The translations under genes and the position numbers were made by a program. 64,000 nucleotides of DNA, from the IMG/VR virus record IMGVR_UViG_3300035696_000001. The stretch is one strand, 5' to 3'. The notes beneath the pieces were generated by a model, which saw nothing but the letters and a program-made list of their open reading frames with translations, searched no databases and had not been told where the DNA came from. This DNA is from a virus. Shown piece by piece: positions 6,163-54,286 of the stretch (position 1 is its first letter; each line of letters opens with the position of its first letter).

Positions 6163-7143
6163 CTACACCTCTACCCACACTTTTGCCGCTGCGCTGGCGT
6201 ACGCCGCCTCTATCAGTCGCTGCGCTTGCAGCCCGTCATGGCTGTTGCTTTGCAAGACGTTTCCCATGATCTCGTTTTCGAAGGCGGCCCAGTCTATTTC
6301 CCAGTGAGCCAGACTGTTTTCAAATGTTTGCGTGACCTCTGTGGGTCGGCTGTGATCCGGCAGCCGGTGCCCCGCAGTTAGTTTTTGGGGGCCGTAGAAC
6401 CCGTCGCGCCCCTCCAGTCTCAGGTAACCGTCGGTCCCAAAGATTTCCAACTCAAAGATGCTCATCCATTGGGTCCAGCTAACGTGAATCTGCGCCATCC
6501 CCTGCTGGGTTTCTAAGAGAAGAAACGCGTTGTCTTCGGTGTTAGAGAATTTGTGGAAGCAGCAATCCGTCCTCGCTAGCACTTTTCGGGGTTCGCCGAA
6601 AAGGTATCGAACTAAGTCCAGCACATGAATGGCTTGTTCAATCAAGACGCCCCCGCCGCTGAACTCTTTTTGGGTACACCAATCCTTCTCGTAGCCGGGG
6701 TGCCCGCCGTGCCCGTAGCGGCACCTGACGAACATGGGGCGTCCTATGTCACCCCTGTCAAGGCGGGCTTTGGCTGCTCGAACATGCGACATGTGCCGGT
6801 AGTTGAATCCGACGTGTAGCATGCGACTATTCTCTTTGGCGCAGGCGCACATGTCTAGGGCCTCTGAAAGATTCAGACCAAGCGGCTTCTCGCACAGGAC
6901 ATGCTTGCCCTTTTTAAGGGCTTCCATGGCTAGCTCAGCGTGGTACTTCGTGGGCGTGGCGATCACGACGGCGTCGATGTCTTTTCGTGAGAGAATTGAT
7001 TCCTTGGTGTCCGCCAAGTCGGGAGATACCTTGCCGTGGGTGGGGTCATGCGCAGCGACAAGCACAGACCGCTCCGAGTTTTTGATCGCCTCGGCGCGGA
7101 ACTGTCCCGCTCGACCCATCCCGAATATAGCTACGTTGATCAT
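6163..7143 (-). CDS. Gfo/Idh/MocA-family NAD(P) oxidoreductase
   Basis: Start at the internal Met MINVAIFGMGRAGQ, giving an ATGA overlap with the upstream gene. EKPL motif. Typical sugar oxidoreductase. Confidence 0.7.
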   Translation of the reverse strand: MINVAIFGMGRAGQFRAEAIKNSERSVLVAAHDPTHGKVSPDLADTKESILSRKDIDAVVIATPTKYHAELAMEALKKGKHVLCEKPLGLNLSEALDMCACAKENSRMLHVGFNYRHMSHVRAAKARLDRGDIGRPMFVRCRYGHGGHPGYEKDWCTQKEFSGGGVLIEQAIHVLDLVRYLFGEPRKVLARTDCCFHKFSNTEDNAFLLLETQQGMAQIHVSWTQWMSIFELEIFGTDGYLRLEGRDGFYGPQKLTAGHRLPDHSRPTEVTQTFENSLAHWEIDWAAFENEIMGNVLQSNSHDGLQAQRLIEAAYASAAAKVWVEV

Positions 7144-8012
7144 TGGCTGGTTTCCCGGATTTTGTCTACGAGTTCCACAGCGTCCAAAAGAGGGGTCTTG
7201 CAGCCGTACCGACGCCCCAATTCCTGGAGGACGTGCAGGTCTCTTATCAAGTGCCCGCCCGAAAGCCCCCAACCGGGGTTCACGTACGACTTTCCCCCCA
7301 CTCTGCTATCCGCTTTGGTGGCCCGAGCTACGTCCATCTCGTCGGCACCCACCTTTTTACATAGGTTTGCTATCTCGTTGGCGAAGCTGATCTGCGTCGC
7401 CAGCATGGTGTTGTGGGCGTGCTTGGCCATCTCAGCGGATCGCAGGCCCATTTGCAGAACGGGACGACCCAACGGCCGGTACAGGCTGACGACGCGCTCC
7501 AAGACTGCGGGGTCGTCCGCCCCTATGATAATCCGGTCTGCGTACAGAAAATTGGACACCGATTGGCCGGGCCGCAAAAGCTCTGGAACGTAAGCCACCA
7601 TTCCGCTTGTCAAACTCTCTGTCGTGCCCACGGGCACCTGAGAAGTTACGCACAGGATGCTGCCTGCGGATCGCAGTTCTTCTATCTTGGAGGCTGTGAC
7701 TAATGTGGATTCCAGCAGCAGCCCCTTCTCGTTAAACGGTAGGTCAATCGAAAGAAACACAAAGTCAGCCTCAGAGACGGCCTCGTTGTCTGTGGTGAAT
7801 CGAAGGCGGCGGAGAAGCAAGTTGTTGCGAAGCAGGGTCTCCAACCCCGGCTCGGGGATAGCGCCGGAATAATGCCCCGAATTCAACGCAGCAACGCAAC
7901 CGGCATCTCCGTCAATGGCCACGACCTGATAGCCTATCTCAGAGAAGCAAGCCGCTTGAACCACGCCCTGATGCTGCAAGCCTACGATGCAAATTTTGGG
8001 GGCGTCGCTCAT
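7140..8012 (-). CDS. UDP-glucose/GDP-mannose dehydrogenase-family protein, C-terminally truncated
   Basis: N-terminal NAD domain and central domain (RSAEMAKHAHNTMLATQISFANEIANLCKKVGAD, GWGLSGGHL). Only 290 aa, so the C-terminal UDP-binding domain is absent. Confidence 0.55.
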   Translation of the reverse strand: MSDAPKICIVGLQHQGVVQAACFSEIGYQVVAIDGDAGCVAALNSGHYSGAIPEPGLETLLRNNLLLRRLRFTTDNEAVSEADFVFLSIDLPFNEKGLLLESTLVTASKIEELRSAGSILCVTSQVPVGTTESLTSGMVAYVPELLRPGQSVSNFLYADRIIIGADDPAVLERVVSLYRPLGRPVLQMGLRSAEMAKHAHNTMLATQISFANEIANLCKKVGADEMDVARATKADSRVGGKSYVNPGWGLSGGHLIRDLHVLQELGRRYGCKTPLLDAVELVDKIRETSQ

Positions 8013-20481: not shown

Positions 20482-20667
20482 GGCATAACTCGCAGTTTGG
20501 GTTGGCCACCAACCCCACGGGCTTGCCGTCCACGAAGACTTCGTATGTTCTGCCGGACACCTCGGGCATTCGAATTTCCCCCTACTTAAAATACGAAAAA
20601 CCAGTAGATTGCCGGGCGTCGGGCTGGTATGCTAGGGATATTATGGTAAGGATCAAGGAGCCTGCCA
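20482..20667. promoter_or_regulatory. Divergent intergenic control region with inverted repeat CTACT-N16-AGTAG (20582..20607)
   Basis: Strand-switch point between the minus-strand glycan island and the plus-strand block. Lower GC; TATTAT and TATGCT -10-like hexamers. Carries the SD and ATG of 20668. Confidence 0.3.
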
Positions 20668-21899: not shown

Positions 21900-22444
21900 G
21901 ATTTTCCGTGCTCTTTATTTTCGTGGCGTTTTACCCAGTTGCAGTTAGCGCACAATACTTGGTACATCTGGCTTCTTTCGGGATCGGCAACGGCTTTCTT
22001 GTAGTCGTTATAGGCACCTCCTGCTTCTCGCCGAGTTTTATGGCCTCCCCCATGCTTGTGGTCTACCTGTAAACAGCGGAGGTCAGTGCATCCTTTCGTG
22101 CCATCATCGTTGACCCAATGGCAATTCGGGTCGGAACACCGACCGCCTAAAAGTCTTATAAGTTCTGTGTGTAGGCGCTTATTCCCTGACCAAAATTTTT
22201 CCAGATTTATAGGCTTTTTGGGGCAGGTTTCAGTGAATATCCACGGCTGAAAAGCCCCGGTTTTCCATGCTTCATAGTAGCATTTCCGGCATAGTCCTCT
22301 GGCTATTTTTGGCTGGTGAGTGCAAACAAATCTCATTCCGCTAAATACTGAAATCGCTAGTTGACACGAATTCCCTAAATATGTAGTATCAATAACAGAG
22401 AGACTTTGACGGAGACGTTTTCCCTGCGTTTGCAGGGCGGACAT
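21896..22444 (-). CDS. HNH endonuclease (zinc-ribbon type), homing-endonuclease-like
   Basis: VDHKHGGGHK...LCANCNWVKRH with CxxC pairs. Lone minus-strand gene in a plus-strand block, in a lower-GC island. Confidence 0.65.
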   Translation of the reverse strand: MSALQTQGKRLRQSLSVIDTTYLGNSCQLAISVFSGMRFVCTHQPKIARGLCRKCYYEAWKTGAFQPWIFTETCPKKPINLEKFWSGNKRLHTELIRLLGGRCSDPNCHWVNDDGTKGCTDLRCLQVDHKHGGGHKTRREAGGAYNDYKKAVADPERSQMYQVLCANCNWVKRHENKEHGKS

Positions 22445-22479
22445 CCCCCTCTTAGCAAACAGTTTTGATTTGGTTGTCG

Positions 22480-22700
22480 TGCAGCGGTGTTTGGCTGACG
22501 GTTACTTCTTACCTAGAAAATGTCCTTGCCCGCAAGGGCAGGACATGGGGAAACCCTCTCCGTTGCCTCTTGTTCCCTGCCGACAGTTTTCCAGCGCGGC
22601 GGTTTTTGGTTGCGGTTACTTCTGCCTGTAAAGCAGACGAGCGGGGTCCGAATCCCCGGCGACCCGCGAGGGTCGAGGCTTGGGCCTAGTCAAAATACCG
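22480..22700 (+). ncRNA. Candidate Y RNA (YrlA-like) with tRNA-like module, upstream of rsr
   Basis: 300-bp ORF-poor gap before the Ro60 gene. Hairpin with GCAA tetraloop (22521..22546). GGGG-TCCGAAT-CCCC T-arm-like hairpin at 22642..22658 containing GGTCCGA (22645..22651), which is identical to the conserved Ro-binding 5' strand of Y RNAs. CUAGUC 3'-strand-like element at 22686. Boundaries and strand not determined. Confidence 0.35.
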
Positions 22701-22749
22701 AGGCCTATTGTTCCCCGCGCCTAAATTTCTAGCTCAAAAGAGGTGAACC

Positions 22750-24174
22750 ATGGCATCACTCAACGCTGCAACCCGTACCGCAAAGACCCCGCTCCGCACC
22801 GCCGAGGGCGGCAGGGCGGTCGGCATCGGCAAGGTCGCGCAGCTTCAGCGCCTGCTGAACGCCTGCCTCCTGTGGGAGGACAACTTCTACTCGGACGGCA
22901 AGAGCGTCGCCGACCTCATGCGCGAGCTTGTGCGCGAAGTCCCAGCCGAGAAGGTCGCGGAGCTTGCGATCAAGGCCCGCGAGGAGCAGAAGCTCCGCCA
23001 TGCCCCGCTGCTCATCGTCTACGAGATGACGCTCGCCTCGAAGGCTCACCGCGAGCTTGTCGGGGAGACGCTCACCCGCGTGATCCAGCGCCCGGACGAG
23101 ATCACCGAGTTCGTCGCCATCTACTACAAGCTCGGCGGCGGGAAGCGCCCGCTCTCGAAGCAGGTCAAGAAGGGCCTTGCCGCTGCCTTCAACAAGTTCA
23201 ACGAGTATGCGCTCGCAAAGTACAACCGCGACAAGGACGTCAAGCTCGCGGACGTGCTGGCGCTCGTCCACGCCAAGCCGAAGGACAGGGAGCAGGGCCT
23301 CCTCTTCGCGAAGCTTGCGAACAAGGACCGCCTGCCGAAGAAGACCAAGTTCGCGCAGTTCCCGGTGGCCGACACCTACCGCTCGCTCGCGAAGAACTTC
23401 AAGGGTCTGGAGACCCCGGACACTTGGGAGGTCGCGCTCTCTGGCGGCGCGGACAAGAAGGAGGCCTTCGAGCGCCTCATCCGCGAGGACAAGCTCGGCG
23501 GCCTCGCGATGATCCGCAACCTGCGCAACATGCAGGAGGCGGGCGTCTCCGACGCGGTCATCAAGCAGGGCCTTGCGCAGATGAACGCCGAGCGCGTGCT
23601 CCCGTTCCGCTTCATCGCGGCGGCGAAGTACGCCCCGAAGTTCGAGGCGCACCTTGAGGAGGCGATGTTCAAGTGCCTTGAGGGGCACCCGAAGCTGCCG
23701 GGCAAGACCGTGCTGCTCGTGGACGTTTCCGGCTCGATGGATCAGCATGTTTCCTCGAAGTCCGACCTGATGCGCGTGGACGCTGCCGTCGCCCTTGCGA
23801 TGCTCCTCCGCGAGGTCGGCGAGGACGTGGTCGTGTATTCGTTCTCGGAACGGGAAGTCCTCGTCCCGACCCGGCGCGGGTTCGCCCTCGCCGAGGCGAT
23901 CAAGGGGTCGCAGCCCCATTCGGGCACGTACCTCGGCCGCTCCGTGACCGCCGTTGCCCGCGCCGAGGGCGACGCCGACCGCGTCATCGCGATCTCGGAC
24001 GAGCAGGCGCACGACAACGTCTCGAACCCATTCCGCAAGACCGAGTCGAAGGCGTACATGATAAACGTGGCAAGCGAAGCTCACGGAGTCGGATACCGTA
24101 ATGGTTGGAATCACATCGATGGATGGTCTGAGGCTGTGGTAGACTACGTAGTTGCTGAAGAGGCAACAAAATAG
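22750..24174 (+). CDS. rsr: Ro60/Rsr ortholog (TROVE domain + vWA/MIDAS)
   Basis: N-terminal TROVE-like region (LLWEDNFYSDGKSVAD..HAPLLIVYEM). C-terminal vWA domain with the MIDAS motif VLLVDVSGSMD. The overlapping ORFs 22743..23657 and 22756..24114(-) are frame artefacts. Confidence 0.8.
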   Translation: MASLNAATRTAKTPLRTAEGGRAVGIGKVAQLQRLLNACLLWEDNFYSDGKSVADLMRELVREVPAEKVAELAIKAREEQKLRHAPLLIVYEMTLASKAHRELVGETLTRVIQRPDEITEFVAIYYKLGGGKRPLSKQVKKGLAAAFNKFNEYALAKYNRDKDVKLADVLALVHAKPKDREQGLLFAKLANKDRLPKKTKFAQFPVADTYRSLAKNFKGLETPDTWEVALSGGADKKEAFERLIREDKLGGLAMIRNLRNMQEAGVSDAVIKQGLAQMNAERVLPFRFIAAAKYAPKFEAHLEEAMFKCLEGHPKLPGKTVLLVDVSGSMDQHVSSKSDLMRVDAAVALAMLLREVGEDVVVYSFSEREVLVPTRRGFALAEAIKGSQPHSGTYLGRSVTAVARAEGDADRVIAISDEQAHDNVSNPFRKTESKAYMINVASEAHGVGYRNGWNHIDGWSEAVVDYVVAEEATK

Positions 24175-24239: not shown

Positions 24240-24785
24240 ATGCTTGGTCAAAGGTTTGGACGTTACACGGTTATTGAGAAAGCGGGCTACCACACATCGC
24301 CCTGTGGGCAGAAGCAAGCGATGTGGAAATGTCGTTGTGACTGCGGTACGGTGAAGACTGTCATTGGTGCAGCGTTACGAAGGGGCAATACTAAGAGTTG
24401 CGGATGCTTAAAGCTTGAGTTACTTCCTTTGTATCGTTTCAAACTCCCAGAAGGGCACTCCATACGGAACAAAGTGCTAGGAACCTATAAACATAGCGCT
24501 AAAGTACGAAAACTGATATGGCAACTTACGGATGTACAATTTGACATTTTGACGCAACAAAATTGCCATTATTGCGGAACGGCTCCGACAACTGTGCGTC
24601 AGATCAAAAACCTGAACGGACCGTTCGTATACAACGGTATCGACCGGAAGAATAATTCAAAGGGGCACACCCCGGACAATGTGGTATCATGCTGCGAAGT
24701 TTGTAATAAGATGAAGCTGACGATGTCAATCGAAAAATTTTTGGCACATGTACAGCGAATCGTTGCTCATATTCCTAGCATCTAA
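24240..24785 (+). CDS. HNH homing endonuclease
   Basis: N-terminal FGRYTV..W.CRCDCG zinc-ribbon module. HYCGT...NGIDRKNNSKGHTPDNVVSCCEVCNKMK HNH motif. Paralogous to the N-terminus of 58246..59388. Lower-GC island. Confidence 0.65.
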   Translation: MLGQRFGRYTVIEKAGYHTSPCGQKQAMWKCRCDCGTVKTVIGAALRRGNTKSCGCLKLELLPLYRFKLPEGHSIRNKVLGTYKHSAKVRKLIWQLTDVQFDILTQQNCHYCGTAPTTVRQIKNLNGPFVYNGIDRKNNSKGHTPDNVVSCCEVCNKMKLTMSIEKFLAHVQRIVAHIPSI

Positions 24786-26458: not shown

Positions 26459-26809
26459 ATGGGGCACATCAAGCAAAACCGATTCAGGGGCAGCATGGCT
26501 GAGTACGGCGCGATAACGGCGCTGTTCGAGGACATCCCGGCGTCCGAGGTCAGCGTCACATCCGGGGCGCAACTTGCGTTCGACGCAGCCCGCGCCTTCA
26601 TCAAAGAGATGATCGCCAACCAATGCAGACTCGCCGGGTGCAAGCTGACAGGGCATCCCCATGGCGAGGGCGATGAGCATACGAACAAGTGCTGGTTCGG
26701 CATGAGGCAAGCTTACTACGCGGACAGGAACGCCAAAAAGCTGCTTCGAGAAGCCGAAGACCGGATGAAAATGCACGTCAAAGGCTTCGGAGGATTTGAG
26801 TTTGAATGA
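26459..26809 (+). CDS. Hypothetical protein
   Basis: GAGGGG SD before the ATG at 26459. Confidence 0.35.
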   Translation: MGHIKQNRFRGSMAEYGAITALFEDIPASEVSVTSGAQLAFDAARAFIKEMIANQCRLAGCKLTGHPHGEGDEHTNKCWFGMRQAYYADRNAKKLLREAEDRMKMHVKGFGGFEFE

Positions 26810-27216
26810 GCGAAGCATACTGGAAGGCGCGGTACCACGCAGCGGAGAGGGCGTTCCAGAAGCTCAAGGTTATCACCAAGCAAGTCCCTGCGGGCACGTG
26901 GACTGCCGACTACCGTAAACTGGCGGAGGCGGTGCATACCCTTGGGCGCGACGTATTCTGGGTGCCCCTTTGCGGCGGCTGCGGCAAATGCGAGGAGTGC
27001 CTGAAGGTCGAGCCTTCAAGTCGGGGGGAGGAAAAACCTATGGGTGACACAGTCAAGGCTACGAGCGGCATGGTCAAGTTTTGCGAGAAACACCAGCGGG
27101 AGTACGAGGTGATAAATTACGGAGACCGCTTCGGGATGGAATGCCCGGCATGCCGGGAGGAAGCCGAGTCCGAGCACACTGTGGCGTTCCTTGACCGGGT
27201 GGAATTTCCCAAGTAA
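26806..27216 (+). CDS. Hypothetical Cys-rich (zinc-binding?) protein
   Basis: CGGCGKCEEC and CPACREE pairs. Confidence 0.4.
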   Translation: MSEAYWKARYHAAERAFQKLKVITKQVPAGTWTADYRKLAEAVHTLGRDVFWVPLCGGCGKCEECLKVEPSSRGEEKPMGDTVKATSGMVKFCEKHQREYEVINYGDRFGMECPACREEAESEHTVAFLDRVEFPK

Positions 27217-27261
27217 CCAAAACCTCCGTCCTGGCTGTACACTATGGGCAGGAGGGTCACC

Positions 27262-27606
27262 ATGTATACAGGGAAGATCGTCAATGAGGGCGAGATCAAG
27301 GACGTTGACCGTATCGTCACGAATGGCGAGGGCAAGGTGCTTGACCTTGAAGCCAGCCTTAGGGTCGTGAACCATTCCCCAACAGGGTTCTGCTGGGGCT
27401 ACAACGGCTCCGGCCCGGCGCAGCTTGCGCTCGCCATCCTGCTCGACCACCTCAACGGCGACCGCGCTTACGCGCTGTCGATCTACCAAGACTTCAAGGA
27501 CAAGGTCATCGCCCGGCTTCCGATAGACGAGGACTTCGTGCTGACCGACCAGCAGGTCGAGTCCGCCATCACCGAGATCAACATTGAAAGAATGCGGAGA
27601 GCGTGA
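27262..27606 (+). CDS. Hypothetical protein (SPTGFCWGYNGSGPAQLALAIL motif)
   Basis: AGGAGGG SD before the second ATG. Confidence 0.4.
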   Translation: MYTGKIVNEGEIKDVDRIVTNGEGKVLDLEASLRVVNHSPTGFCWGYNGSGPAQLALAILLDHLNGDRAYALSIYQDFKDKVIARLPIDEDFVLTDQQVESAITEINIERMRRA

Positions 27607-30946: not shown

Positions 30947-31738
30947 ATGTTCGTTTACCTGATCGTCAACGACGTGAATCTGAAGATTTACGTCGGCAAG
31001 ACCATCAGCAAAAATCTACAACTTTACTTTCAAAAGAAGCTTTGGGACGCAGAGCACCCCGAGTCCTCCCGAGGAAATTCCCATCTTTTTGCTTCTGTTC
31101 GTAAATACGGACGCGAACACTTCCACATCTTTCCGCTGTTCGAGGGTCAAACTAACGAAGAAATCTGCGTCCATGAGAAGCTACTCATAAAGGTTCTCGC
31201 TGTGCAGAATTCTGAGATTGGTTACAACATCTGCCGTGGTGGTGAAGGGCGCATGGGGTCGCACACCGCCGAGACCATCGTCAAAATTAGTAAGTCTAAT
31301 AAAATTACAAAGTCTGACCAGAAATATCGTGCTAAAGCCAGTGAAACCATGAAACAAACATGGAGAATCAATCCGCAAAATCGGATTAGGCTTAGTGAAT
31401 CTACTAAAAATAAATGGTCTACTCCTGAGTTTCGTGCAAAAGCCAGCGGAGGTATAAAGCAACGGTATATAACCGATCCGAATTATCGCTCCCAAATTTC
31501 CGAGGCGGGTAAAAAGCAGTGGATTGAAGCCGATCCTATAGAGCAAGTTAAAAGGGTAGAACGGTTAGTCAAAGCTACGAAAAGAAGGTGGGTAAAGTAC
31601 AGGGAAGAAACCAAAGAACTGACCGCACAAATTGTCAATTTACATCAAAAGGGATGGACTCAAAGGGCCATAGCGCATGAACTGAGCATAGGGAAAAGTA
31701 CAGTTCATAGCCGCTTAAAACAGACAAGAGATTACTAG
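30947..31738 (+). CDS. GIY-YIG homing endonuclease with NUMOD3 repeats and C-terminal HTH
   Basis: VYLIVNDVNLKIYVGKT (GIY) and YNICRGG (YIG). Repeated SHTAETIVKISKSN, ASETMKQTW and LSESTKNKWS NUMOD3 motifs. Markedly AT-richer than its flanks. Confidence 0.75.
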   Translation: MFVYLIVNDVNLKIYVGKTISKNLQLYFQKKLWDAEHPESSRGNSHLFASVRKYGREHFHIFPLFEGQTNEEICVHEKLLIKVLAVQNSEIGYNICRGGEGRMGSHTAETIVKISKSNKITKSDQKYRAKASETMKQTWRINPQNRIRLSESTKNKWSTPEFRAKASGGIKQRYITDPNYRSQISEAGKKQWIEADPIEQVKRVERLVKATKRRWVKYREETKELTAQIVNLHQKGWTQRAIAHELSIGKSTVHSRLKQTRDY

Positions 31739-31779
31739 ACGGCTAGCTTTCCGCCTCTTTTTGTAGGATAATCACTGAC

Positions 31780-32271
31780 ATGGCCTCGAAGAAAAATGAC
31801 ATCGAAAAGGCGCTGGGGAAGATCGGTGAAAACGCTCGTGCGGTCGGCAAGGCGGCGGAGAGCCTGAGCAAAGAGTGGCGTCAGACCCTCGACGACGTCA
31901 ACGAGGCGGACAAGGCATTCGGCGACGAGGTGTTTCAGAATAAGGAAAATTTTGTGGATTTCCTGAGAAGCAAAATCAGAAACGGCAAAACTGAAATCCG
32001 CGTGATGCAGGTTGGGCCGGATGGTCTCCTTACCGACGTCTCGGACAAGGTCAATGCAAAAGACCTCAAACCCGAGGACATCAGCGGCATCCAGACCGAA
32101 AACGGCAGGACAATACCAATCGGTCAGAGCAGGGAAGCCGCCTATCGGCTCTTGCAAGAACTGCTGACCTCAGCATCGGCAGCAAGCCAATTCGGCACAT
32201 CGGAATCGATCAGAAGAATGGAGCTTGTTTTGGCTGAGAGCGACAAAATTTTGGAGCATTGGAAGAAGTGA
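31780..32271 (+). CDS. Hypothetical protein
   Basis: 163-aa ORF, followed by a GC-rich stem-loop. Confidence 0.45.
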   Translation: MASKKNDIEKALGKIGENARAVGKAAESLSKEWRQTLDDVNEADKAFGDEVFQNKENFVDFLRSKIRNGKTEIRVMQVGPDGLLTDVSDKVNAKDLKPEDISGIQTENGRTIPIGQSREAAYRLLQELLTSASAASQFGTSESIRRMELVLAESDKILEHWKK

Positions 32272-32315: not shown

Positions 32316-33434
32316 ATGAAGCTTTTACTCAAGAATATCCTGCCCTTCGACCTGTTCAGGCGCATGCTTGACGAGGGATACGTCCGCTCGCAGGTGCATC
32401 CCCTTTATCCTGAGTTGGTTGTCTTCAACTACACCGAGGCGGCCCAATTTGACCGTGCGTGGAATGAGGCGACCAACGTGTGCCGCGGCCTGGTCGTGCG
32501 GCTCGCAAACGGCGTGCTGGACGACGACGCCGAGGTGTTGGCGCGGCCTTTCAACAAGTTCCATAACCTGAACACTGCCTACGTGCCGGAGACTATGGAG
32601 GCGAGCCTGCCGGACGAGGCACCGCTTGTGACCACGAAGCTTGACGGCTCGATGGGCATCGTGTATTCGTACGACGGTCAATGGTGGGTCGCGACTCGCG
32701 GGTCGTTCGACTCGGATCAGGCACGCCGGGCGACAGCGTGGTACCGCCAGCACATAGCCGTGGGGTTTCCCCAGAACTGGCCCGACGGCGTTACGCCCGT
32801 GTGCGAGATCATCTACCCGGAGAACCGGATCGTCGTGGACTACGACTTCGAAGGATTGGTGTTGCTCTCGATGATCGAGAACGCAACCGGGCGCGAGCTT
32901 GCCCGCGACGAGGTGGAGGCATGGGCGAGAGTCAACGTGCTCCAGATCGTTGATAAGTTTGACAAGACGCTAGCGGAGTGCGCGGCTGAGAACGCGCTGA
33001 ACGAGGAGGGGTACGTTTTGACTTACTCGAACGGCGTGAAGGTGAAGGTGAAGTTCGCGGAGTACGTGCGGCTCCACCGCATCCTTACTGGGTTGAACCC
33101 GAAGGCGATCTGGGAGATGCTTGCCCAGAATTTCGGGGCGGGGGTGGATGCGATCCTTGCAGACCCGAAGATGCCCGTCACCTTCATCGAATGGTTCAAG
33201 GGGTGGGTGGATCAGCTTCGCAGGAAGTACGCGGAGATCGAGCGGGAGGCGCAGGCTGTGTTCGCCGCGCGTCCGCAGTCGCCCGTCCGCAAGGATCAGG
33301 CGCTCTACTTCATGCAGACGCCGCAGCACAAGTCTGTCCTGTTCGCAATGCTCGACGGCAAGGACTACGCCGGGATCATTTGGGACCGCATTGCGCCGAA
33401 GGGCAACCAGACGTTCAAGAAGGACGGAGAATAA
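32316..33434 (+). CDS. rnl: RNA ligase (T4 Rnl-like, ATP-dependent)
   Basis: Motif I TTKLDGSMG (KxDG), motif IV EEGYVL and motif V VKVKVKF. Partner of Pnkp. Confidence 0.7.
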   Translation: MKLLLKNILPFDLFRRMLDEGYVRSQVHPLYPELVVFNYTEAAQFDRAWNEATNVCRGLVVRLANGVLDDDAEVLARPFNKFHNLNTAYVPETMEASLPDEAPLVTTKLDGSMGIVYSYDGQWWVATRGSFDSDQARRATAWYRQHIAVGFPQNWPDGVTPVCEIIYPENRIVVDYDFEGLVLLSMIENATGRELARDEVEAWARVNVLQIVDKFDKTLAECAAENALNEEGYVLTYSNGVKVKVKFAEYVRLHRILTGLNPKAIWEMLAQNFGAGVDAILADPKMPVTFIEWFKGWVDQLRRKYAEIEREAQAVFAARPQSPVRKDQALYFMQTPQHKSVLFAMLDGKDYAGIIWDRIAPKGNQTFKKDGE

Positions 33435-33580
33435 AAGTTCCCGTGCGGTAACATTTCGTTGGTTTTGCCCCAAAACCGACAGAATGCTCCCGTGCGGGAA
33501 CATTGTATTCCAAAGGAACGTTATACTCCAAGTAACTGATCCTGCTGGGGTTATTCCCTTTTCCCTTTCTGGCCTTTTCA

Positions 33581-33600
33581 GGGGACTCCGCTGTATACTA
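33581..33600 (+). promoter_or_regulatory. Repeated promoter-like motif copy 1 (GGGGACTCCGCTGTATACTA)
   Basis: Extended -10-like TGTATACT. 30 nt shared with copy 2. Lies 19 nt before the ATG at 33619. Confidence 0.35.
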
Positions 33601-33618
33601 TAGGCGGAGAAACGATAA

Positions 33619-34995
33619 ATGAAGAAATCTACGGTCTTTTGGATGGTCGTGGCCGCCCTCGCTGTCCGCATCGCTTTCATGGTGGCGTTTGATACGTATC
33701 ACTTCGTTGGCGTAGACGACATGACCAAGGTCGGTGAAACGACGAACATCGCGGCGTCCATCGCCAGGGGGCACGGATTCAGTTCACCGTTCGGCGGCGA
33801 ATACACGGGGCCGACAGCTTGGATTGCCCCCGTCTATCCGTACTTCATTGCCCTTGTGTTCCACTTCTTTGGGATATTCTCGAACGCCTCAGCGGCAGTC
33901 GTTTTCACGATTCAAGCACTGTTTTCCGCCTTGACTGTCATTCCGATTTTGGGCATCGCCAATAAAACTGTCGGGAAGCGTTCCGGTTTGGTAGCCGCTT
34001 GGACATGGACTCTTTTCCCTTGGTTTAGCAAATGGGCATTAACTTGGGAGTGGGAAGTCAGCTTGAGTGCGTTGCTCCTCTCCTTAATCGTTTGGTACAT
34101 GCTCAGTCTGGAAAAGGCAGCCGCCGTTAAGTCGTGGGCTGGGTTTGGAATCCTAGAGGGATTCGCTCAGCTAGTCAATCCGGCACTGAGCGCCGTTCTC
34201 CCGGTTGCATTTGCGTGGCAGGTCTACAAACTGCGATTCAACCGCAAAGAGTGACTCAAGCCGGTCGTGGCGCTGCTGGCGTGCGTCGCCACAATAACAC
34301 CTTGGGTAGTGCGAAATCGCGTTGTGTTCGGACAATGGGTGTTCCTGCGCGGCAACTTCGGTTACGAGTTCGCCCTTGGCAACTACCATAACAGCTTCGG
34401 GCGCGGGTGGGGAGGGTTTCACCCTTCGGGTAACTTGCGCGAATACGACGACTACAAGCGCATGGGCGAGGCGGCTTACATCGAATCCCATAAAGAAAAA
34501 GGCCTCCAGTTTGTGCGCCAGTACCCGGTTGAATTCGTTACGCTAACAGCGAAACGGGTTTCCTACTTTTGGGATGGGAGCGCCGTCGGTTACCGGGCAC
34601 CCGTCGCCAAGCATTGGATTCCGTCCAGCTTCGGCGTGATCTCATTATTGCTGCTTCCAGCCCTGCTGATTACGTACAGGAATCGGGTACCGGCATGGCA
34701 AGCGTTCTTCGGTGTGTTTCTGCTGTACCCGGCACCCTATTATCTTACGTTCAGTCAATTGCGTTACCGGCACGCCGTTGAGCCTCTCATGGTAATTCTA
34801 ATCTCTTACGCCGTGGTCAACGCCATAACTGCGATCTATCAAAGTTTTTTAGGTTTGCGTCTTCCTAGCCTTTTCGGGGGACTCCGCTGTATACTACCGA
34901 CGAAAGCAGCGACGTCTGCGGCACCCGCTGCCCGAAGTCGGAGAAATCCGAAGGGCAAACGTCCTGCAAATTTTATGCTCAAGGACTCGTTATGA
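33619..34995 (+). pseudogene. GT-C fold membrane glycosyltransferase (ArnT/PMT-like) interrupted by a single in-frame TGA at 34252
   Basis: ORFs 33619..34254 and 34267..34995 are in the same frame, separated only by TGA 34252..34254 (NRKE*LKPVVALLA). Together ~455 aa with multiple TM helices and a first-loop VGVDD..GE acidic motif, typical of ArnT/PMT_2. May be a readthrough/recoded gene, a pseudogene or a sequencing error. Confidence 0.45.
34876..34896 (+). promoter_or_regulatory. Repeated promoter-like motif copy 2 (GGGGGACTCCGCTGTATACTA)
   Basis: Same 30-nt element as 33571..33600. Lies ~95 nt upstream of the CCA-enzyme gene start. Confidence 0.3.
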
Positions 34996-36317
34996 GTTGG
35001 AAGCGAGAAAATTTCATCTCGTCATTCCAGATTGCCGCGCACGCCAAGGTGATGTACAAGCTTGAAAACAAGGGCTTCGAAGCTTTCCTTGTCGGCGGCT
35101 GCGTGCGCGACCGGCTTCTCCAACGGCAATCCAGGGACTTCGATGTGACGACCGACGCCACGCCCGACCAGATTCGTGCCATCTTCCCTCACACCATCCC
35201 GGTCGGCGCGAAGTTCGGCGTCGTGGTCGTGCTGATGGACGGCGTGCAGGTCGAAGTTGCAACGTTTCGAAGCGACGGGACTTACACTGACGGTCGGCGA
35301 CCGGACGAAGTCACGTACAGCAGGAACGCAAAGGATGACGTCGTCCGCCGCGATTTCACCATGAACGGCTTGCTCATGGACTCCCTCGGCGACATTATCG
35401 ACCACGTTGACGGTCAGGAAGACATCAAGCACGGAATCATCCGCGCCATCGGCGACCCAAACGTGCGCTTCGCGGAGGATGCGCTCCGCATGATGCGGGC
35501 TGTCCGCTTCGCGGCGCAGCTTGGCTTCAAGATCGAGGAAAAGACCCTTGAAGCGATCAAGAGCAACGCCCGGCTCCTGTCCGCCATCAGCCGGGAGCGC
35601 ATCGCGATGGAGCTTTTCAAGATGCTTTCCGCGCCGTTTCCGCTCAAGGGGATCGTGCCTTTCATTGCGACGGGGCTGTTCCGCTATGCCTTGCCGGAGC
35701 AGTTCCCCGACCATGTGAACATGGCGCGAACCATACAGCGGTTCGGCACGTTCGAGGCGAAGGACGCCATGCTCGGCATGGCTATGCTATTCGCCGACAT
35801 CAACGACTTCTACTGTGGGGGGCTTGCGGATTACCTCAAGCTGTCCAACGAGCAAAAAGACGAGCTTATTTGCATGAAGAGCCACGTTCATAATTTCCAG
35901 CACCACTTAACCGGGGCGTACCGCATGACTGAGGCGCGGATCAAACGCAACCTGCGGTATCCGGGCGTCAGGCTGGCGCTGGAGATCATGACGCAGGACG
36001 AGGTCATGGGCAAGACCGGCTTCGGCATCGAGGCGCTGATGGCGTTCGTGCTCAAGGTCAAGGCGTACAAACCCGAGGAGATCAAGCCGAAGCCGCTGGT
36101 GACGGGCAAGGACTTGATTGACGCTGGCATCCCACCGGGGCCGATCTATACGAGCATCCTGTTCGACATTGAGAGCCACCAGCTTAACGGCGTGTTCACG
36201 ACGAAGGAGCAGGGCATGGAGTTCGTCCGCGAGCGCGTACGCCAAGGAGCGGGTCTGCATGGGCTTGAGTGGGTTTATACGGGCTTGTCCGCAACGGAAG
36301 CGCGGGAGCTAGAATGA
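34992..36317 (+). CDS. cca: tRNA nucleotidyltransferase (CCA-adding enzyme), class II
   Basis: Head-domain motifs LVGGCVRDRLL, RDFDVTTDA, VATFRSDG and DVVRRDFTMNGL (RRD). Confidence 0.8.
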   Translation: MSWKRENFISSFQIAAHAKVMYKLENKGFEAFLVGGCVRDRLLQRQSRDFDVTTDATPDQIRAIFPHTIPVGAKFGVVVVLMDGVQVEVATFRSDGTYTDGRRPDEVTYSRNAKDDVVRRDFTMNGLLMDSLGDIIDHVDGQEDIKHGIIRAIGDPNVRFAEDALRMMRAVRFAAQLGFKIEEKTLEAIKSNARLLSAISRERIAMELFKMLSAPFPLKGIVPFIATGLFRYALPEQFPDHVNMARTIQRFGTFEAKDAMLGMAMLFADINDFYCGGLADYLKLSNEQKDELICMKSHVHNFQHHLTGAYRMTEARIKRNLRYPGVRLALEIMTQDEVMGKTGFGIEALMAFVLKVKAYKPEEIKPKPLVTGKDLIDAGIPPGPIYTSILFDIESHQLNGVFTTKEQGMEFVRERVRQGAGLHGLEWVYTGLSATEARELE

Positions 36318-36868
36318 TCACCCCGCGTTTCAACCAGATCACCCTCCTGCACGGAAGGAACGAGCTTCCGAACGGAAAATTTCCCGGCGTCACCGAGCAC
36401 TTGGAAGCCATCCTGCATGCGGCGTATCCGGCTGTGCTTTTCGCCTGCCCGTTCGTGCCGTCCGACCTTGGTGCCAAGGATGCGTTCTTTTTCGTGCGGA
36501 AGAATTATGTCAGCCGGATGCAGGCCGACTCGCTGCTCGTCGGTCTGGAGCGCGGCGGTCTGATCGCGTGCGCCGTGCAAGATGCCTTTCCTGCGTTGCG
36601 CCTTTCGGTGTTCGCCGCCAACTCGCCCACTGAGGATGACAAGCTCGTCGTGGAGCCGTGCGATTCCCATACCCGCCTTGCCCTGTATTCCAGCGCTTAT
36701 CCCCCAATCAAGGGGCGCTGCGACTGGAAGGCGCTCACGTCAACGGCGTACGACGTTCCGTGGCTGGCGTCCGGCTGCAAGAACCTGTACCCGCTCGCCT
36801 ACCTGATCTCCGCGTACAGCCACGGGGTTGACATGGACAAGCAGGTTGCCATGATGTTCCCCTCCTAG
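36314..36868 (+). CDS. Hypothetical protein
   Basis: Start at the internal Met MITPRF, ATGA-coupled to cca, with GGGAG SD. Confidence 0.4.
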   Translation: MITPRFNQITLLHGRNELPNGKFPGVTEHLEAILHAAYPAVLFACPFVPSDLGAKDAFFFVRKNYVSRMQADSLLVGLERGGLIACAVQDAFPALRLSVFAANSPTEDDKLVVEPCDSHTRLALYSSAYPPIKGRCDWKALTSTAYDVPWLASGCKNLYPLAYLISAYSHGVDMDKQVAMMFPS

Positions 36869-36880
36869 TACAATCGAGGC

Positions 36881-37615
36881 ATGGACAAATGGCCTTCGCT
36901 CCTCATGCTCACACGGCATGGATACTCCGTCGCCAACGAGCGCAAGAACAAGGCTAAGCAGGCGGGTGCAGACTCGTGGGCCGGTATCGCCCGCGACCAG
37001 GACGCGGAACTGACCGCGCTGGGGCACCAGCAATCATTCGAGCTTGGCGTGATGATCGGAAAGTCCGTCAGCATCAATTTCAAGTCCGACCTTCCAGAAG
37101 TTATCATCACGTCGCCGCACCGCCGCGCCAAACAAACCACCGCAGGCATCGTACGGGGCGTTCAAAGCACCCACCCGGACTACAACCCGACCGTCGTCGT
37201 CGAGGAGCGCATCCGAGAGATCGAGTTCGGGATCATGGACGGCATCGACCGCGCCACGTTCCGCAAGCTCTTTTCATCCGAGGCGGATCGCCGGGAGCGC
37301 GACGGGAAGTACTATTACCGCCCGCCCGGAGGCGAGAATCGCCCCGACGTGCGCCTGCGGGTGCATTCCGTCCTCGACACACTGAACCGCGACTATGTCG
37401 GTAAGAAGGTTCTGATCGTCTGCCACAGCGTCGTCGTGCTTGCGTTCAGGAGCCTGATAGAGCGCTGGGAAGAGGACGAATACCTTCAAGTGGACAAGGA
37501 AGACGACGTCAAGAACTGTGGTCTTACGATCTACGACCGCATCGACTACCGGAAGCTCAAACTCCGGGAATACAACAAGGTCGCTCCTGCATCTAACCCG
37601 GTAGAGGCTCCATGA
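36881..37615 (+). CDS. Histidine phosphatase superfamily protein (PGAM-like)
   Basis: LTRHGYS (RHG catalytic motif) and a second His in CHSVVVLAF. Possible RNA 2'/3'-end phosphatase role in the RNA-repair context. Confidence 0.6.
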   Translation: MDKWPSLLMLTRHGYSVANERKNKAKQAGADSWAGIARDQDAELTALGHQQSFELGVMIGKSVSINFKSDLPEVIITSPHRRAKQTTAGIVRGVQSTHPDYNPTVVVEERIREIEFGIMDGIDRATFRKLFSSEADRRERDGKYYYRPPGGENRPDVRLRVHSVLDTLNRDYVGKKVLIVCHSVVVLAFRSLIERWEEDEYLQVDKEDDVKNCGLTIYDRIDYRKLKLREYNKVAPASNPVEAP

Positions 37616-37787
37616 GTAAAGCTGTTGAGCAACGAAACCAAGTAGCAGAGCGTATTTGCTTCGGCTGGAACTCCCTGCACGGACTCACCATGCTGCACAC
37701 CCTTAAGAACGCCATCGTGTACTGGAAATGCAAGTGCGGGGACGACGGCAAGACCGCCCAAGAGTGGAAGGAGCATCTGCACCAGAT

Positions 37788-38048
37788 ATGACACTTCACA
37801 CCAAGTTGAGCTATGCCAAAAGCGGCGTCCGCATTGTCGGCTGCGTTTGCCTGGTCGTCATCGGCGTCGCGCGAGGTTTGCTGGGCTTGTGGCTTGGCGG
37901 TGGGTTGCTCCTTCTTGCGGAGCTTATCGGCATCGCCGAAGAAGCGTGGCCCGGCGCGTACAAGGGCACCGAAACAGACACTTCGGGCATACGGGATGGG
38001 ACGGATGGTTGTAAGTATCATTCATCGTCTGACGTGAGCGTCAAATGA
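37788..38048 (+). CDS. Small membrane protein (2 TM)
   Basis: Start at the internal Met MTLHTK. IVGCVCLVVIGVARGLLGLWLGGGLLLLAELIGIA. Confidence 0.4.
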   Translation: MTLHTKLSYAKSGVRIVGCVCLVVIGVARGLLGLWLGGGLLLLAELIGIAEEAWPGAYKGTETDTSGIRDGTDGCKYHSSSDVSVK

Positions 38049-38293
38049 GCGAACCCCTCATGATAAAGTGCCGCTACCGCGCAGAAGGCATTCAGTGCAG
38101 TTCCGGTCTGCTGTACGACTCCGTCACGCTGGCACCCATCTTGCTTGACGGCACGGGCGTCTACTGCCCGGCATGCGAGGGCAGGGGCATGCTCCCGACC
38201 CCCAAGGGGCGCGAGTTCCTTGCGTTCCTGGAAAAATTCGGCAGGTCCCAACTCCGCGACATAGTGGACGAACTCTTCGGGGAACGCGGCTAG
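38045..38293 (+). CDS. Hypothetical Cys-containing protein
   Basis: 82-aa ORF with CPACEGRG. Confidence 0.4.
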   Translation: MSEPLMIKCRYRAEGIQCSSGLLYDSVTLAPILLDGTGVYCPACEGRGMLPTPKGREFLAFLEKFGRSQLRDIVDELFGERG

Positions 38294-38304
38294 ACGAAAT
38301 TCCT

Positions 38305-38322
38305 CTCCCCGCTGTATACTAC
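38305..38322 (+). promoter_or_regulatory. Repeated promoter-like motif copy 3 (CTCCCCGCTGTATACTAC)
   Basis: The -10-like TATACT ends 6 nt before the ATG at 38327, which implies a leaderless transcript. Confidence 0.35.
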
Positions 38323-38326
38323 TGAC

Positions 38327-38590
38327 ATGATCGAGCCTGCTGCATGGAACCCGCGCTACCTTGCTTACTGCCGGGCGCATAAAATGACCCCGGAGCAGAT
38401 GATGGAGCATGATCGCGAGAAATGGGAGGGCGGCTGCATGTGCGGCTTTATCCTCTGGCACACCGCCAAGCTGAGCGAGGCGCGGCGCATACACCGAGAA
38501 TTCTTCCACATCGAGATCAGCGGTACTGCCGGGGGCTTGCTTGACCACAAGGGCTACGATGAGTGGCTCAACGAGAGTGTGGCTAACTGA
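38327..38590 (+). CDS. Hypothetical protein
   Basis: 87-aa ORF immediately after the promoter-like motif. Confidence 0.4.
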   Translation: MIEPAAWNPRYLAYCRAHKMTPEQMMEHDREKWEGGCMCGFILWHTAKLSEARRIHREFFHIEISGTAGGLLDHKGYDEWLNESVAN

Positions 38591-38605: not shown

Positions 38606-38818
38606 ATGAAGATCGAGAAACTGCAACCCGGTCAGATCAGCGTGGAGCGCCAAGGCATGGGCAACATCGTGTTTCGAGTCCACATAGTGGCAATCGACCC
38701 GAAGAAGCGGTGGGTGTTGGCTTCGTGGAACGGCAATATCCCGCGCAGATTCTCCAACCGCTCGGTCAGCAAATGGCGCGAGAAGAAACCCAATGAAAAC
38801 CCCACAGCCACAGCCTGA
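38606..38818 (+). CDS. Small protein, paralog A (MKIEKLQPGQ...WVLASWNGN)
   Basis: Paralogous to 39504..39788, ~55% identity by eye. Confidence 0.45.
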   Translation: MKIEKLQPGQISVERQGMGNIVFRVHIVAIDPKKRWVLASWNGNIPRRFSNRSVSKWREKKPNENPTATA

Positions 38819-39144: not shown

Positions 39145-39507
39145 ATGCGAGTTAACCACAAAGAATTTGTCACCATGCCTGCGATAGCGGAAGTCGTTGA
39201 CCTGTACGATGCAGGCTTGCTTGTCGAACAGGCGCAACCCACGGAGCACAGCCCAACCTGCCCGACCCAGCAGTTAACGCTCACCACCCTGTCGGCATTC
39301 TTGGAAGAGGATGAATGCACCTGCCCGCCAGAGACCCTTTACGCTATCGGCAGCCACGGAGAAGAGGCGGCGGGCATTTTGCCGTATTCTGTGACCCCGT
39401 CCTTTCGTAGCGTTGCGGAACTGGAAGCGTTTTGCAAGCTCAACCTCGACGAATTTCGGCGTTGCGCCGAGACCGACGAAGAGCCGAATTTGATCACACC
39501 CAAATGA
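39145..39507 (+). CDS. Hypothetical acidic protein
   Basis: Start at the internal Met with GAGGGGGAAA SD. Confidence 0.4.
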   Translation: MRVNHKEFVTMPAIAEVVDLYDAGLLVEQAQPTEHSPTCPTQQLTLTTLSAFLEEDECTCPPETLYAIGSHGEEAAGILPYSVTPSFRSVAELEAFCKLNLDEFRRCAETDEEPNLITPK

Positions 39508-39788
39508 AGATTGAAAAACTGCAACCCGGTCAAATGGTGTACAGCGTGGAGCGCCAGAAAATGGGCAACACAACGCTAACAACCATGTCCGTGTTCAGTG
39601 TCCGTATCGTGGAGATCGACCCGGAGAAGCAGTGGGTACTGGCTTCGTGGAACGGCAACACTCCGCGCAAGTTCTACAAGCACGCGGTCAGCAAGTGGCG
39701 GGGGAAGAAGCCAGCGATGATCTCTGGCATTTTTGGCAGCCAACGGCTGGCAACCCGCGAAGAGATCAAGGCAATGGGGCAAAAATAG
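39504..39788 (+). CDS. Small protein, paralog B (MKIEKLQPGQ...WVLASWNGN)
   Basis: ATGA-coupled. Duplicate of 38606..38818. Confidence 0.45.
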   Translation: MKIEKLQPGQMVYSVERQKMGNTTLTTMSVFSVRIVEIDPEKQWVLASWNGNTPRKFYKHAVSKWRGKKPAMISGIFGSQRLATREEIKAMGQK

Positions 39789-49611: not shown

Positions 49612-49944
49612 AGTGGTGTGGTAGACTTGCGGGGGAGGCTTGATGGCGACGAAATCAACCATTACCGACCTGCAAGCGGTCTTGGATCGCCTTCGCTCCC
49701 ATCGTGAATGCGAATGTTGCGGGGAGACCGTGGTTTGCCTCGGTCCCGACCCCAACAACAGACCCTACGGATTGTGGGTTCACGAAGCCACACAGGACAA
49801 ATTGTGCCAATACGATGATGCCGAGGCGCACGAAGCGAGGAGACGATGACGGATCGCTTGGGAACCCACAAAGTCGGTCATCCTCCGGGGCACCGTGCGG
49901 CAGACCTGAAAATCGGGAATAGCCTCCTTTAGTAGGAGCTTTCG

Positions 49945-53954: not shown

Positions 53955-54286
53955 TCGGCGCGGGCACACACATCCCAACTCCGAAGGACGCCCCCACGGG
54001 GGGCTGGGACACGGGGGGCTGGGACACGGGGGGCTGGGACAACATGTACTGCTACAGCGTGCCCGCGACGCCTGAGCGCCCAGACCCACGCAAAAACCCC
54101 AAGAATTGGGCGCTGTGGTTCCGGGAATTCCTGGCGCTGGTCTGCCTCCGTTGTGAACAGCCCACAATTCGAGCTACGAGGATCGTTTATGATTGGCTCG
54201 CCGGGCAAGTGCGCTGCCGATCCGGCACCCTGCCGACCCGTGAATGGAAAATGAAGGATTGGGTTCAAGCGCTGAGAGCTTCCTGA
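53951..54286 (+). CDS. Hypothetical protein with GGWDT x3 repeat
   Basis: ATGA-coupled. Encodes TGGWDTGGWDTGGWDN from a 15-bp tandem repeat. Confidence 0.4.
   Translation: MIGAGTHIPTPKDAPTGGWDTGGWDTGGWDNMYCYSVPATPERPDPRKNPKNWALWFREFLALVCLRCEQPTIRATRIVYDWLAGQVRCRSGTLPTREWKMKDWVQALRAS
53996..54045. repeat. 15-bp tandem repeat x3 (GGGGGGCTGGGACAC)
   Basis: Direct perfect repeats visible in the sequence, lying in-frame within the CDS 53951..54286. Confidence 0.8.

Follow-up and report, generated by a model that had tools for sequence, protein, structure and literature searches.

A 64,000-nucleotide (nt) stretch of viral DNA, IMG/VR record IMGVR_UViG_3300035696_000001 (hereafter, the window), carries a repeated two-part element that is very probably a transcription promoter of a clade of uncultured soil jumbo phages. 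The element joins an upstream box that reads CTAGCC, usually continues with AAAA or TTTT and would lie at about -37 to -28 to a -10 hexamer, TATACT usually followed by A, across a spacer of exactly 19 nt whose sequence is variable and whose 3' end is GC-rich. A bacterial-type RNA polymerase holoenzyme would open the DNA at TATACT and start transcription 7 nt downstream, where the first transcribed base would be either the A of an ATG codon, giving a leaderless mRNA (site P3 in Table 1), or the first G of GGAG, giving an mRNA that begins with its Shine-Dalgarno sequence (P1 and P0). In the window, promoters of this class would serve a block of RNA-repair and tRNA-processing genes at 27-38 kb. 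The kinds of genes served, which are auxiliary or belong to nucleic acid metabolism, suggest early or middle expression, if anything. The hosts of the clade are probably Acidobacteriota (Terriglobia).

Two-box anatomy of the element

The 15-mer CTCCGCTGTATACTA has two exact copies in the window (33586-33600 and 34882-34896) and a third that differs by one mismatch (38307-38321). When up to three mismatches are allowed, it has five matches in the window against 0.66 expected, a number that none of 100 shuffled sequences reached. A direct repeat of 36 nt is made up by the two long copies, 33565-33600 and 34861-34896, which are identical at 33 of 36 positions (92%) and offset by 1296 nt; the third copy (38305-38322) is shorter and has CCGCTGTATACTAC in common with the long ones. 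The 64 kb contain the heptamer GTATACT only three times, each time on the plus strand. These observations bear out an initial annotation of this DNA, which had described two near-identical long copies and a shorter third one, and the start codons that it placed downstream of them (33619, 34992 and 38327) are positioned as claimed. The same annotation had argued that the element is non-coding from the identical peptide tail that the long copies yield in two open reading frame (ORF) tracks; since 1296 is a multiple of 3, this identity is a trivial outcome of the offset. Neither a relevant Rfam match (whole window at gathering scores; 22380-22760 and 33400-35050 at E values up to 1) nor a tRNA gene was found in the window, so that a known RNA gene can be discounted as the nature of the element. 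Viral contigs do not contain the exact 20-mer GGGGACTCCGCTGTATACTA.

The repeat first described is thus real, although it covers only the -10 half of a larger element. A second box (CTGGCC, CTAGCC or CTAGAC), overlooked at first, lies exactly 19 nt upstream of each TATACT at P1, P2 and P3. A position weight matrix (PWM) built from the family of sites described below, with a reporting cut-off of 10, finds just four sites in the window, P0 to P3, all of them intergenic, on the plus strand and 7-97 nt before plus-strand starts. In the window and in related loci, the sites that this matrix returns lie upstream of genes on the sense strand. Relaxed matching to the two boxes (9 of 12 positions) yields 20 matches compared with 39 in shuffled sequences, and these fewer, weak matches are therefore uninformative. 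A supposed weaker relative of the element near 22709, upstream of the rsr gene, turned out not to be a copy: TCCCCGCGCCTAAATT, at 22712-22727, has neither box, no TATACT-type hexamer and a PWM score below 10, and it falls within a non-coding block shared with the related locus L001.

Details of the individual sites refine this picture. The notion that the core resembles an extended -10 does not hold, because TG directly abuts TATACT (GCTGTATACT) in the window and in its closest relative, without the one-base gap of the canonical TGnTATAAT, and the other family members have CCGG, CCCG or CAGG (mostly CCGG or CCCG) at this place. By contrast, the proposal that the third copy gives rise to a leaderless mRNA fits: counted from the end of TATACT, the ATG begins at the 7th base, and this spacing is kept in the orthologues of two related loci (L077 and L001). 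The gene at 38327 has no Shine-Dalgarno sequence and no upstream in-frame start, and its ATG is the earliest possible start. P2 lies within the non-conserved 3' tail of the reading frame of an inserted gene, and the 96 nt from P2 to the start of the gene for the CCA-adding enzyme show no significant similarity to the leaders of L077 and L001 and fold moderately better than shuffled sequences (z = -2.5). The TAA of the P0 box (27214-27216) is the stop codon of the gene at 26806-27216, and the TAG of the P3 box (38291-38293) is that of the gene at 38045-38293; overlap of the box TAG with an upstream stop codon was rejected as a rule, being seen at 13 of 67 sites only.

Some further observations concern the surroundings of these sites. 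A hairpin, CTCCGC…GCGGAG, spans P1 alone; it is peculiar to P1 and no part of the element. Two possible variants of the class fall below the PWM cut-off, namely CTAGCT-N18-GATAAT-N7-ATG before the gene at 31780 (31734-31782) and GTAGAT-N18-TATGCT in the divergent region before the first plus-strand gene at 20668 (20595-20640).

Table 1. Coordinates of the promoter sites, their predicted start positions and the neighbouring genes in the window.
Feature	Position	Strand	Description
P0 (weaker site)	27213-27243	+	Box GTAACC, then AAAAC; 19-nt spacer; -10 TACACT at 27238-27243 (GTAACCaaaac…gctgTACACT)
P0 start	A27250 (predicted)		Within AGGAGG; ATG at 27262, 12 nt on; gene product is a DUF6166 protein
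P1	33565-33600	+	Box CTGGCC at 33569-33574; 19-nt spacer; -10 TATACT at 33594-33599
P1 start	G33606 (predicted)		First base of GGAGAAAC; 13-nt leader opening with a Shine-Dalgarno sequence; ATG at 33619
P2	34861-34896	+	Box CTAGCC at 34865-34870; 19-nt spacer; -10 TATACT at 34890-34895
P2 start	G34902 (predicted)		Leader of 90 nt before the ATG (34992) of the CCA-adding enzyme gene
P3	38290-38326	+	Box CTAGAC at 38290-38295; 19-nt spacer; -10 TATACT at 38315-38320, then ACTGAC
P3 start	A38327 (predicted)		A of the ATG, that is, a leaderless mRNA
Rnl1-type RNA ligase gene	32316-33434	+	Upstream anchor of the ligase-promoter-CCA arrangement
PMT_2 (GT39/ArnT-like) glycosyltransferase gene	33619-34995	+	1.26-kb gene between P1 and P2
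CCA-adding tRNA nucleotidyltransferase gene	34992-36317	+	Served by P2 (predicted)
87-amino-acid ORF	38327-38590	+	Function not assigned; predicted leaderless gene behind P3

Orthologous sites in related jumbo phages

Relatives of the window, fetched by protein similarity, are syntenic with it. The closest is a 170-kb contig (L077) whose RNA ligase shares 85% amino acid identity with that of the window, followed by a 332-kb contig (L001 and L078; ligase 72% identical) and a 463-kb contig (L080 and L032; 57%). There is no cultured relative, the ligase being less than 40% identical to those of all 50,697 GenBank phage records. L077 has three sites, which are orthologous to P0, to P1/P2 and to P3, and L001 and L080 also carry a site directly after the ligase gene, in intergenic DNA that has otherwise diverged. 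When ten orthologous sites are aligned, conservation is confined to the two boxes, and TATACT (TACACT at P0) is invariant. Placement before genes on the sense strand is found at all sites of the window (4/4), L077 (3/3), L036 (2/2), L078 (3/3) and L080 (2/2).

For P3, the distance from the hexamer to the ATG is preserved along with the boxes. At the P3 orthologue in L077, whose -10 ends at 10920, the architecture is the same, with ATG at the 7th base after TATACT, and the proteins encoded downstream are homologous at the N-terminus (…AWNPRYLAYCRAHK…); the site at the equivalent position in L001 also has ATG at the 7th base. The P0 orthologues in L077 and L004 are perfect (CTAGCCAAAAC…GCTGTATACTA) and precede the orthologous gene. 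In L023 and L035, the gene for the CCA-adding enzyme is itself leaderless and immediately follows a family promoter. Ligase-bearing phages that are more distant (L081-L083) have no PWM matches. As a separate observation, the promoter downstream of the L077 ligase (7162-7290) is followed at the 7th base by GGAGGCAAC, with no start codon after it; the leader of ~120 nt runs to a small cysteine-rich ORF (MMNFCTACQ…); it could harbour a small RNA, or it may be what is left of a lost gene.

The wider family in viral contigs

The pattern CTAGCC-N18-GTATACTA, scanned across 2.9 million viral contigs, recovers 63 stretches, and several contigs have two or three each. Features that the pattern did not select for recur among these loci. 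For example, about 21 distinct sites share A-rich flanks (aaaaaCTAGCCaaaac), with the consensus aaaaaCTAGCCAAAAc…CCGGTATACTA, and ATG occupies the 7th base after TATACT at 11 of 48 distinct sites, compared with ~0.75 expected. A second group of sites has GGAG or GGGAG at this same 7th base. Sites of the examined loci that do not conform to the search pattern include 22 with the 19-nt spacer and 0 to 6 with each of the other spacers from 14 to 24 nt.

In L021, an array of nine tRNA genes begins ~19 nt beyond a site, which argues that the signal is transcriptional and not translational. Other genes served include those for a PARP-like protein, a DinG-type helicase and an ATP-dependent DNA ligase, as well as many small ORFs; no structural gene was recognised among them, within the genes that were scanned or recognisable. 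A consensus or motif of this kind was not found described in the searchable literature. The first tRNA of the L021 array (6296-6423, minus strand, of 3300041809_000801) has the anticodon CTA, which is of amber-suppressor type, and this phage may recode TAG.

The strong form of the motif, CTAGCCAAAA-N14-GTATACTA, is matched by ~15 distinct sites among the 2.9 million viral contigs. It has 10 matches in 596 Gb of bacterial genomes, compared with ~17 by chance, and no matching record is labelled Acidobacteriota. Because bacterial genomes are at about chance level, the element looks like a clade-specific promoter of sigma-70 type. The earlier suggestion that the promoter is phage-specific is consistent with this count, and the element behaves as a promoter in that its sites are bipartite and fixed in spacing, intergenic, co-oriented with genes, conserved in position and, in one case, placed before a tRNA array.

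Candidate readers of the two boxes

Several considerations count against the promoter explanation. What the sequence itself shows is the motif with its spacing, positions and conservation, as well as the gene insertion described in the next section; initiation, the exact start sites and the reader of the upstream box are inferred. Most family loci were fetched by the motif, so that its presence in them is circular and unselected features alone count. With only four sites in 64 kb, most genes of the window must use other signals. When the upstream box is taken as TAGCCA or TAGACG with an 18-nt spacer, it agrees with TTGACA at only three to four of six positions. The basis for the proposed hosts is the captured gene of the window together with a single, weak similarity at the DNA level to Tunturiibacter phage Tunturi_5; no other named phage or host gave a DNA match, and the 40 kb of Tunturi_5 that were examined lack the motif save for one GTAGCA-N18-TATACTA site. 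An approximate tblastn search with sigma-factor regions found nothing and the Pfam scans list no full sigma factor, in sequence that is a small part of these genomes, and MotA/AsiA-type families are absent among the Pfam families listed for the window proteins (25 of 63 shown in one scan), no dedicated search having been made for them. Sigma region-4-like matches are sub-threshold only and fall in the C-terminal helix-turn-helix (HTH) of a GIY-YIG homing endonuclease.

The normal TAnnnT hexamer and the A-tracts resembling UP elements make the host core polymerase with a sigma-70-family factor the natural reader of the element. Early promoters of phages T7 and T5 are strong near-consensus promoters read by the host, and the sites described here might likewise be ordinary host sigma-A promoters, at which the primary sigma factor would read TAGCCA and TATACT across 18 nt, in strong near-consensus versions that are not phage-specific. 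This explanation is possible, if somewhat doubtful. TATACT is a good -10 of the TAnnnT type, TAGCCA matches TTGACA at four of six positions, the 18-nt spacer is within the sigma-70 range, and a generic promoter scanner labels P3 sigma-70-like. A-rich tracts of UP-element type upstream of many family members suggest contacts with the alpha subunits of the host core enzyme. Leaderless genes, moreover, are predicted at 10-19% in Acidobacteria (PMC3160421), and the single Tunturi_5 site fits the same explanation. Tunturi_5 is an Acidobacteriota jumbo phage whose paper makes no mention of promoters (PMC11924767).

Other observations speak against host promoters. The strong motif is at about chance in the bacterial genomes, as noted above, and the conserved block of ~10 bp (CTAGCC and four A/T) is longer than, and unlike, a -35 hexamer. 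The sole likely host-type strong promoter that was inspected, before rpmH on the soil bacterial contig with the closest homologue of the captured gene, is canonical (TTGACC-N17-TACACT). No PWM match of at least 12 occurs in the bacterial contigs L084 and L085 or in the Tunturi_5 region. Alternatively, CTAGCC and the four A/T at -37 to -28 may be read by a phage-encoded sigma factor, or by a MotA-like activator acting with host sigma-A, a suggestion that we put forward tentatively. Between a host and a phage origin, we lean slightly towards a phage-specified reader of the upstream box.

Gene insertion and promoter duplication

The long copies P1 and P2 owe their near-identity to a lineage-specific duplication tied to a gene insertion, not to functional constraint. 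L077, L001 and L080 have a single promoter between the ligase gene and the gene for the CCA-adding enzyme, followed by a small ORF (L077, L001) or a leaderless ORF (L080), and no homologue of the PMT_2 glycosyltransferase of the window was found in these three or in any related phage locus examined. P1 aligns with the single L077 promoter over 41 nt, from the upstream box through GGAG, and GGTTATTCCC, just upstream of both boxes, is also alike by eye; the alignment and the matching flank identify P1 as the orthologous copy. The flanks of P2 are not homologous to those of relatives. Two changes common to P1 and P2 relative to L077 date the duplication after the split from the L077 lineage. As P1 is the resident promoter, it was not brought in with the PMT_2 gene.

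The homologues of the inserted gene point to its origin. Its protein has hundreds of full-length homologues at 52-67% identity, the named ones being from Terriglobales or Ca. Acidoferrum, and the best homologue lies on bacterial contigs among ffh, rpsP, rimM, trmD, rplS and rnpA/yidD. The GC content at third codon positions (GC3) is ~0.63 compared with ~0.8 in neighbouring genes, and the coding score is low and atypical for the window. An in-frame TGA (34252-34254) stands at a tryptophan (WLKP) that is invariant in six of seven aligned homologues, which implies a nonsense pseudogene or an error of sequencing or assembly. The last ~40 codons of the open frame, which run over P2 and its leader, are not conserved, and no terminator-like site is found on the plus strand between 34254 and 34992. 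In this picture, a glycosyltransferase gene of acidobacterial type entered downstream of the ancestral ligase-to-CCA promoter, and the 36-nt promoter copy behind the insert would keep the gene for the CCA-adding enzyme supplied. The 36-nt repeats could also mediate loss of the insert.

It is unlikely that the 36-nt repeats are instead recombination scars or the ends of a mobile cassette carrying PMT_2 (a target duplication or att-like sites) and have no transcriptional role. They do flank exactly one foreign gene that relatives lack, and repeats of this length could mediate its excision. However, the repeated unit pre-exists, once, in L077 (two to five differences over 33 positions, by eye), the promoter also occurs at places that are not duplicated (P0, P3 and orthologues), no integrase or transposase adjoins, and the boundaries of repeat and promoter coincide. 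Very improbable is a repressor or regulator site of the phage, comparable to the asymmetric stoperators of cluster A mycobacteriophages, in which the shared 13-mer CCGCTGTATACTA would bind a protein and not be a promoter: the three window copies do share 13 nt, more than the hexamer, and GTATAC is a 6-bp palindrome, but the bases before TATACT vary across the family (GCTG, CCGG, CCCG, CAGG), the consensus is asymmetric, GCTGTATACTA is a sub-clade form of the -10 region found at all L077 and L036 sites, and two boxes at a fixed 19 nt and a fixed distance to ATG or GGAG have the geometry of a promoter.

The DNA between the ligase gene and P1 has features of its own. Right after the ligase stop lies a 71-nt near-palindrome (33434-33504) with 34-nt arms that are 76% complementary and two copies of TCCCGTGCGGnAACATT. 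It is absent from L077 and L001, and the 191-nt region around it folds far better than shuffled sequences (z = -4.5). The near-palindrome may act as a terminator or stabiliser hairpin, or it may represent a small palindromic insertion. A direct repeat, GGAACrTTrTAyTCC, follows at ~33499-33531.

Other features of the window

The window resembles a segment of a jumbo-phage genome with many auxiliary genes. A minus-strand block (1-20500) encodes sugar-nucleotide enzymes, including four proteins of the epimerase/dehydratase family, two TylF-type O-methyltransferases, a UDP-glucose/GDP-mannose dehydrogenase and a GFO/IDH/MocA oxidoreductase, and this glycan-biosynthesis module is unusually large for a phage. 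The plus-strand block that begins at ~20.6 kb encodes Ro60/TROVE, polynucleotide kinase-phosphatase, Thg1, the Rnl1-type ligase and the CCA-adding enzyme, as well as a histidine phosphatase, ThyX, deaminases and a peptide deformylase. Two ORFs of low GC3, for a GIY-YIG homing endonuclease with a C-terminal HTH (30947-31738) and an HNH endonuclease (24240-24785), are probably free-standing mobile endonuclease genes.

Upstream of the ATG of rsr/Ro60 (22750) lies a non-coding block of ~260 nt (22460-22727, plus strand) that is conserved at the DNA level with positions 300-470 of L001. The block holds a tRNA T-arm-like sequence (GGGGTCCGAATCCCC, GAGCGGGGTCCGAATCCCCGGCGAC) and, near its ends, two similar TTGTTCCC(T/C)GC stretches; it possibly consists of two tandem modules. 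It resembles a Y RNA of the YrlA type that would be the partner of Ro60, although Rfam gives no match here (22380-22760) even at E values up to 1.

Repeats and candidate words elsewhere in the window are listed here for completeness. The segments 38606-38790 and 39504-39712, ~900 nt apart and 80-91% identical, are paralogous small genes in tandem, and 53995-54041 holds three perfect tandem copies of a 15-nt unit (CACGGGGGGCTGGGACA with period 15). A second candidate motif before several genes, CCTAGTAGG, was rejected as not enriched. Words resembling C(C/T)TAGTAGG at 49928, 54721 and 61406 (plus strand) lie 10-25 nt before three plus-strand starts; they are not enriched over shuffled sequences and might mark another signal class.

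Significance and comparison with known systems

The two-box motif provides a precise and testable consensus, aaaaaCTAGCC(A/T)4-N15-TATACTA, together with predictions of where transcription starts, for the jumbo phages of one of the soil phyla that are most abundant and least tractable. Transcription units and leaderless genes in these contigs can be marked out with this consensus, which could also supply parts for genetic tools in Acidobacteriota. If a phage factor does read the upstream box, the sites would form a transcription class confined to one clade of uncultured jumbo phages of Acidobacteriota. Likewise, mRNAs that start at ATG or at the G of a Shine-Dalgarno sequence would imply, if real, that translation initiation is tuned to minimal 5' ends. 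The window also offers a clean recent case of the capture of a host cell-envelope glycosyltransferase gene by a phage, with the resident promoter duplicated and a nonsense codon already present.

The class has good support from sequence comparison; by analogy, it would resemble known phage-specific promoter classes of sigma-70 type and would be unsurprising in principle. Middle promoters of T4, the nearest analogue for a long box in place of the -35, combine a MotA box at about -30 with a sigma-70 -10 and are activated by AsiA and MotA through sigma appropriation. The sites described here are like them in having a TAnnnT -10 together with ~9-10 conserved bp in the place of the TTGACA -35, in probably being phage-specific and in preceding genes of nucleic acid metabolism. 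They differ in the sequence of the box (CTAGCC and four A/T, compared with TTTGCTTTA in T4) and in its placement (-37 to -28, 19 nt from the -10, compared with ~12 nt in T4), and the phages that carry them are unrelated jumbo phages. A second parallel, the nearest for the coupling of transcription start and ATG, is provided by Thermus phages such as phiYS40 and P23-45, which have leaderless middle and late transcripts and whose promoters are not known to include a -35-type box. Leaderless genes are known in Actinobacteria, Deinococcus and Acidobacteria (PMC3160421). As in the leaderless promoters of the Thermus phages, the -10 is set so that the start would coincide with the first base of the ATG; a Shine-Dalgarno sequence is absent, and this arrangement is used systematically. 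In contrast to the Thermus phages, the upstream box is strongly conserved, and a second sub-class would have GGAG-first mRNAs.

The gene insertion has parallels among mobile gene units of other phages. Morons of lambdoid and other phages are foreign genes lodged between two conserved genes as transcription units of their own. The PMT_2 gene is moron-like in being absent at the same junction in relatives, derived from a host, atypical in composition and preceded by a promoter. Unlike a moron, it has a resident promoter in front (P1), a copy behind it (P2) that restores the downstream promoter, no terminator and a nonsense codon. Arbiol and colleagues reportedly described, in 2010, the PeSL (early promoter and stem-loop) cassettes of T4-type phages, in which genes are flanked by repeated units of early promoter and stem-loop that mediate shuffling. 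Here too, repeated promoter units flank a dispensable gene and give homology for its gain or loss, although in a different family, with a single cassette and no conserved stem-loop in the repeat.

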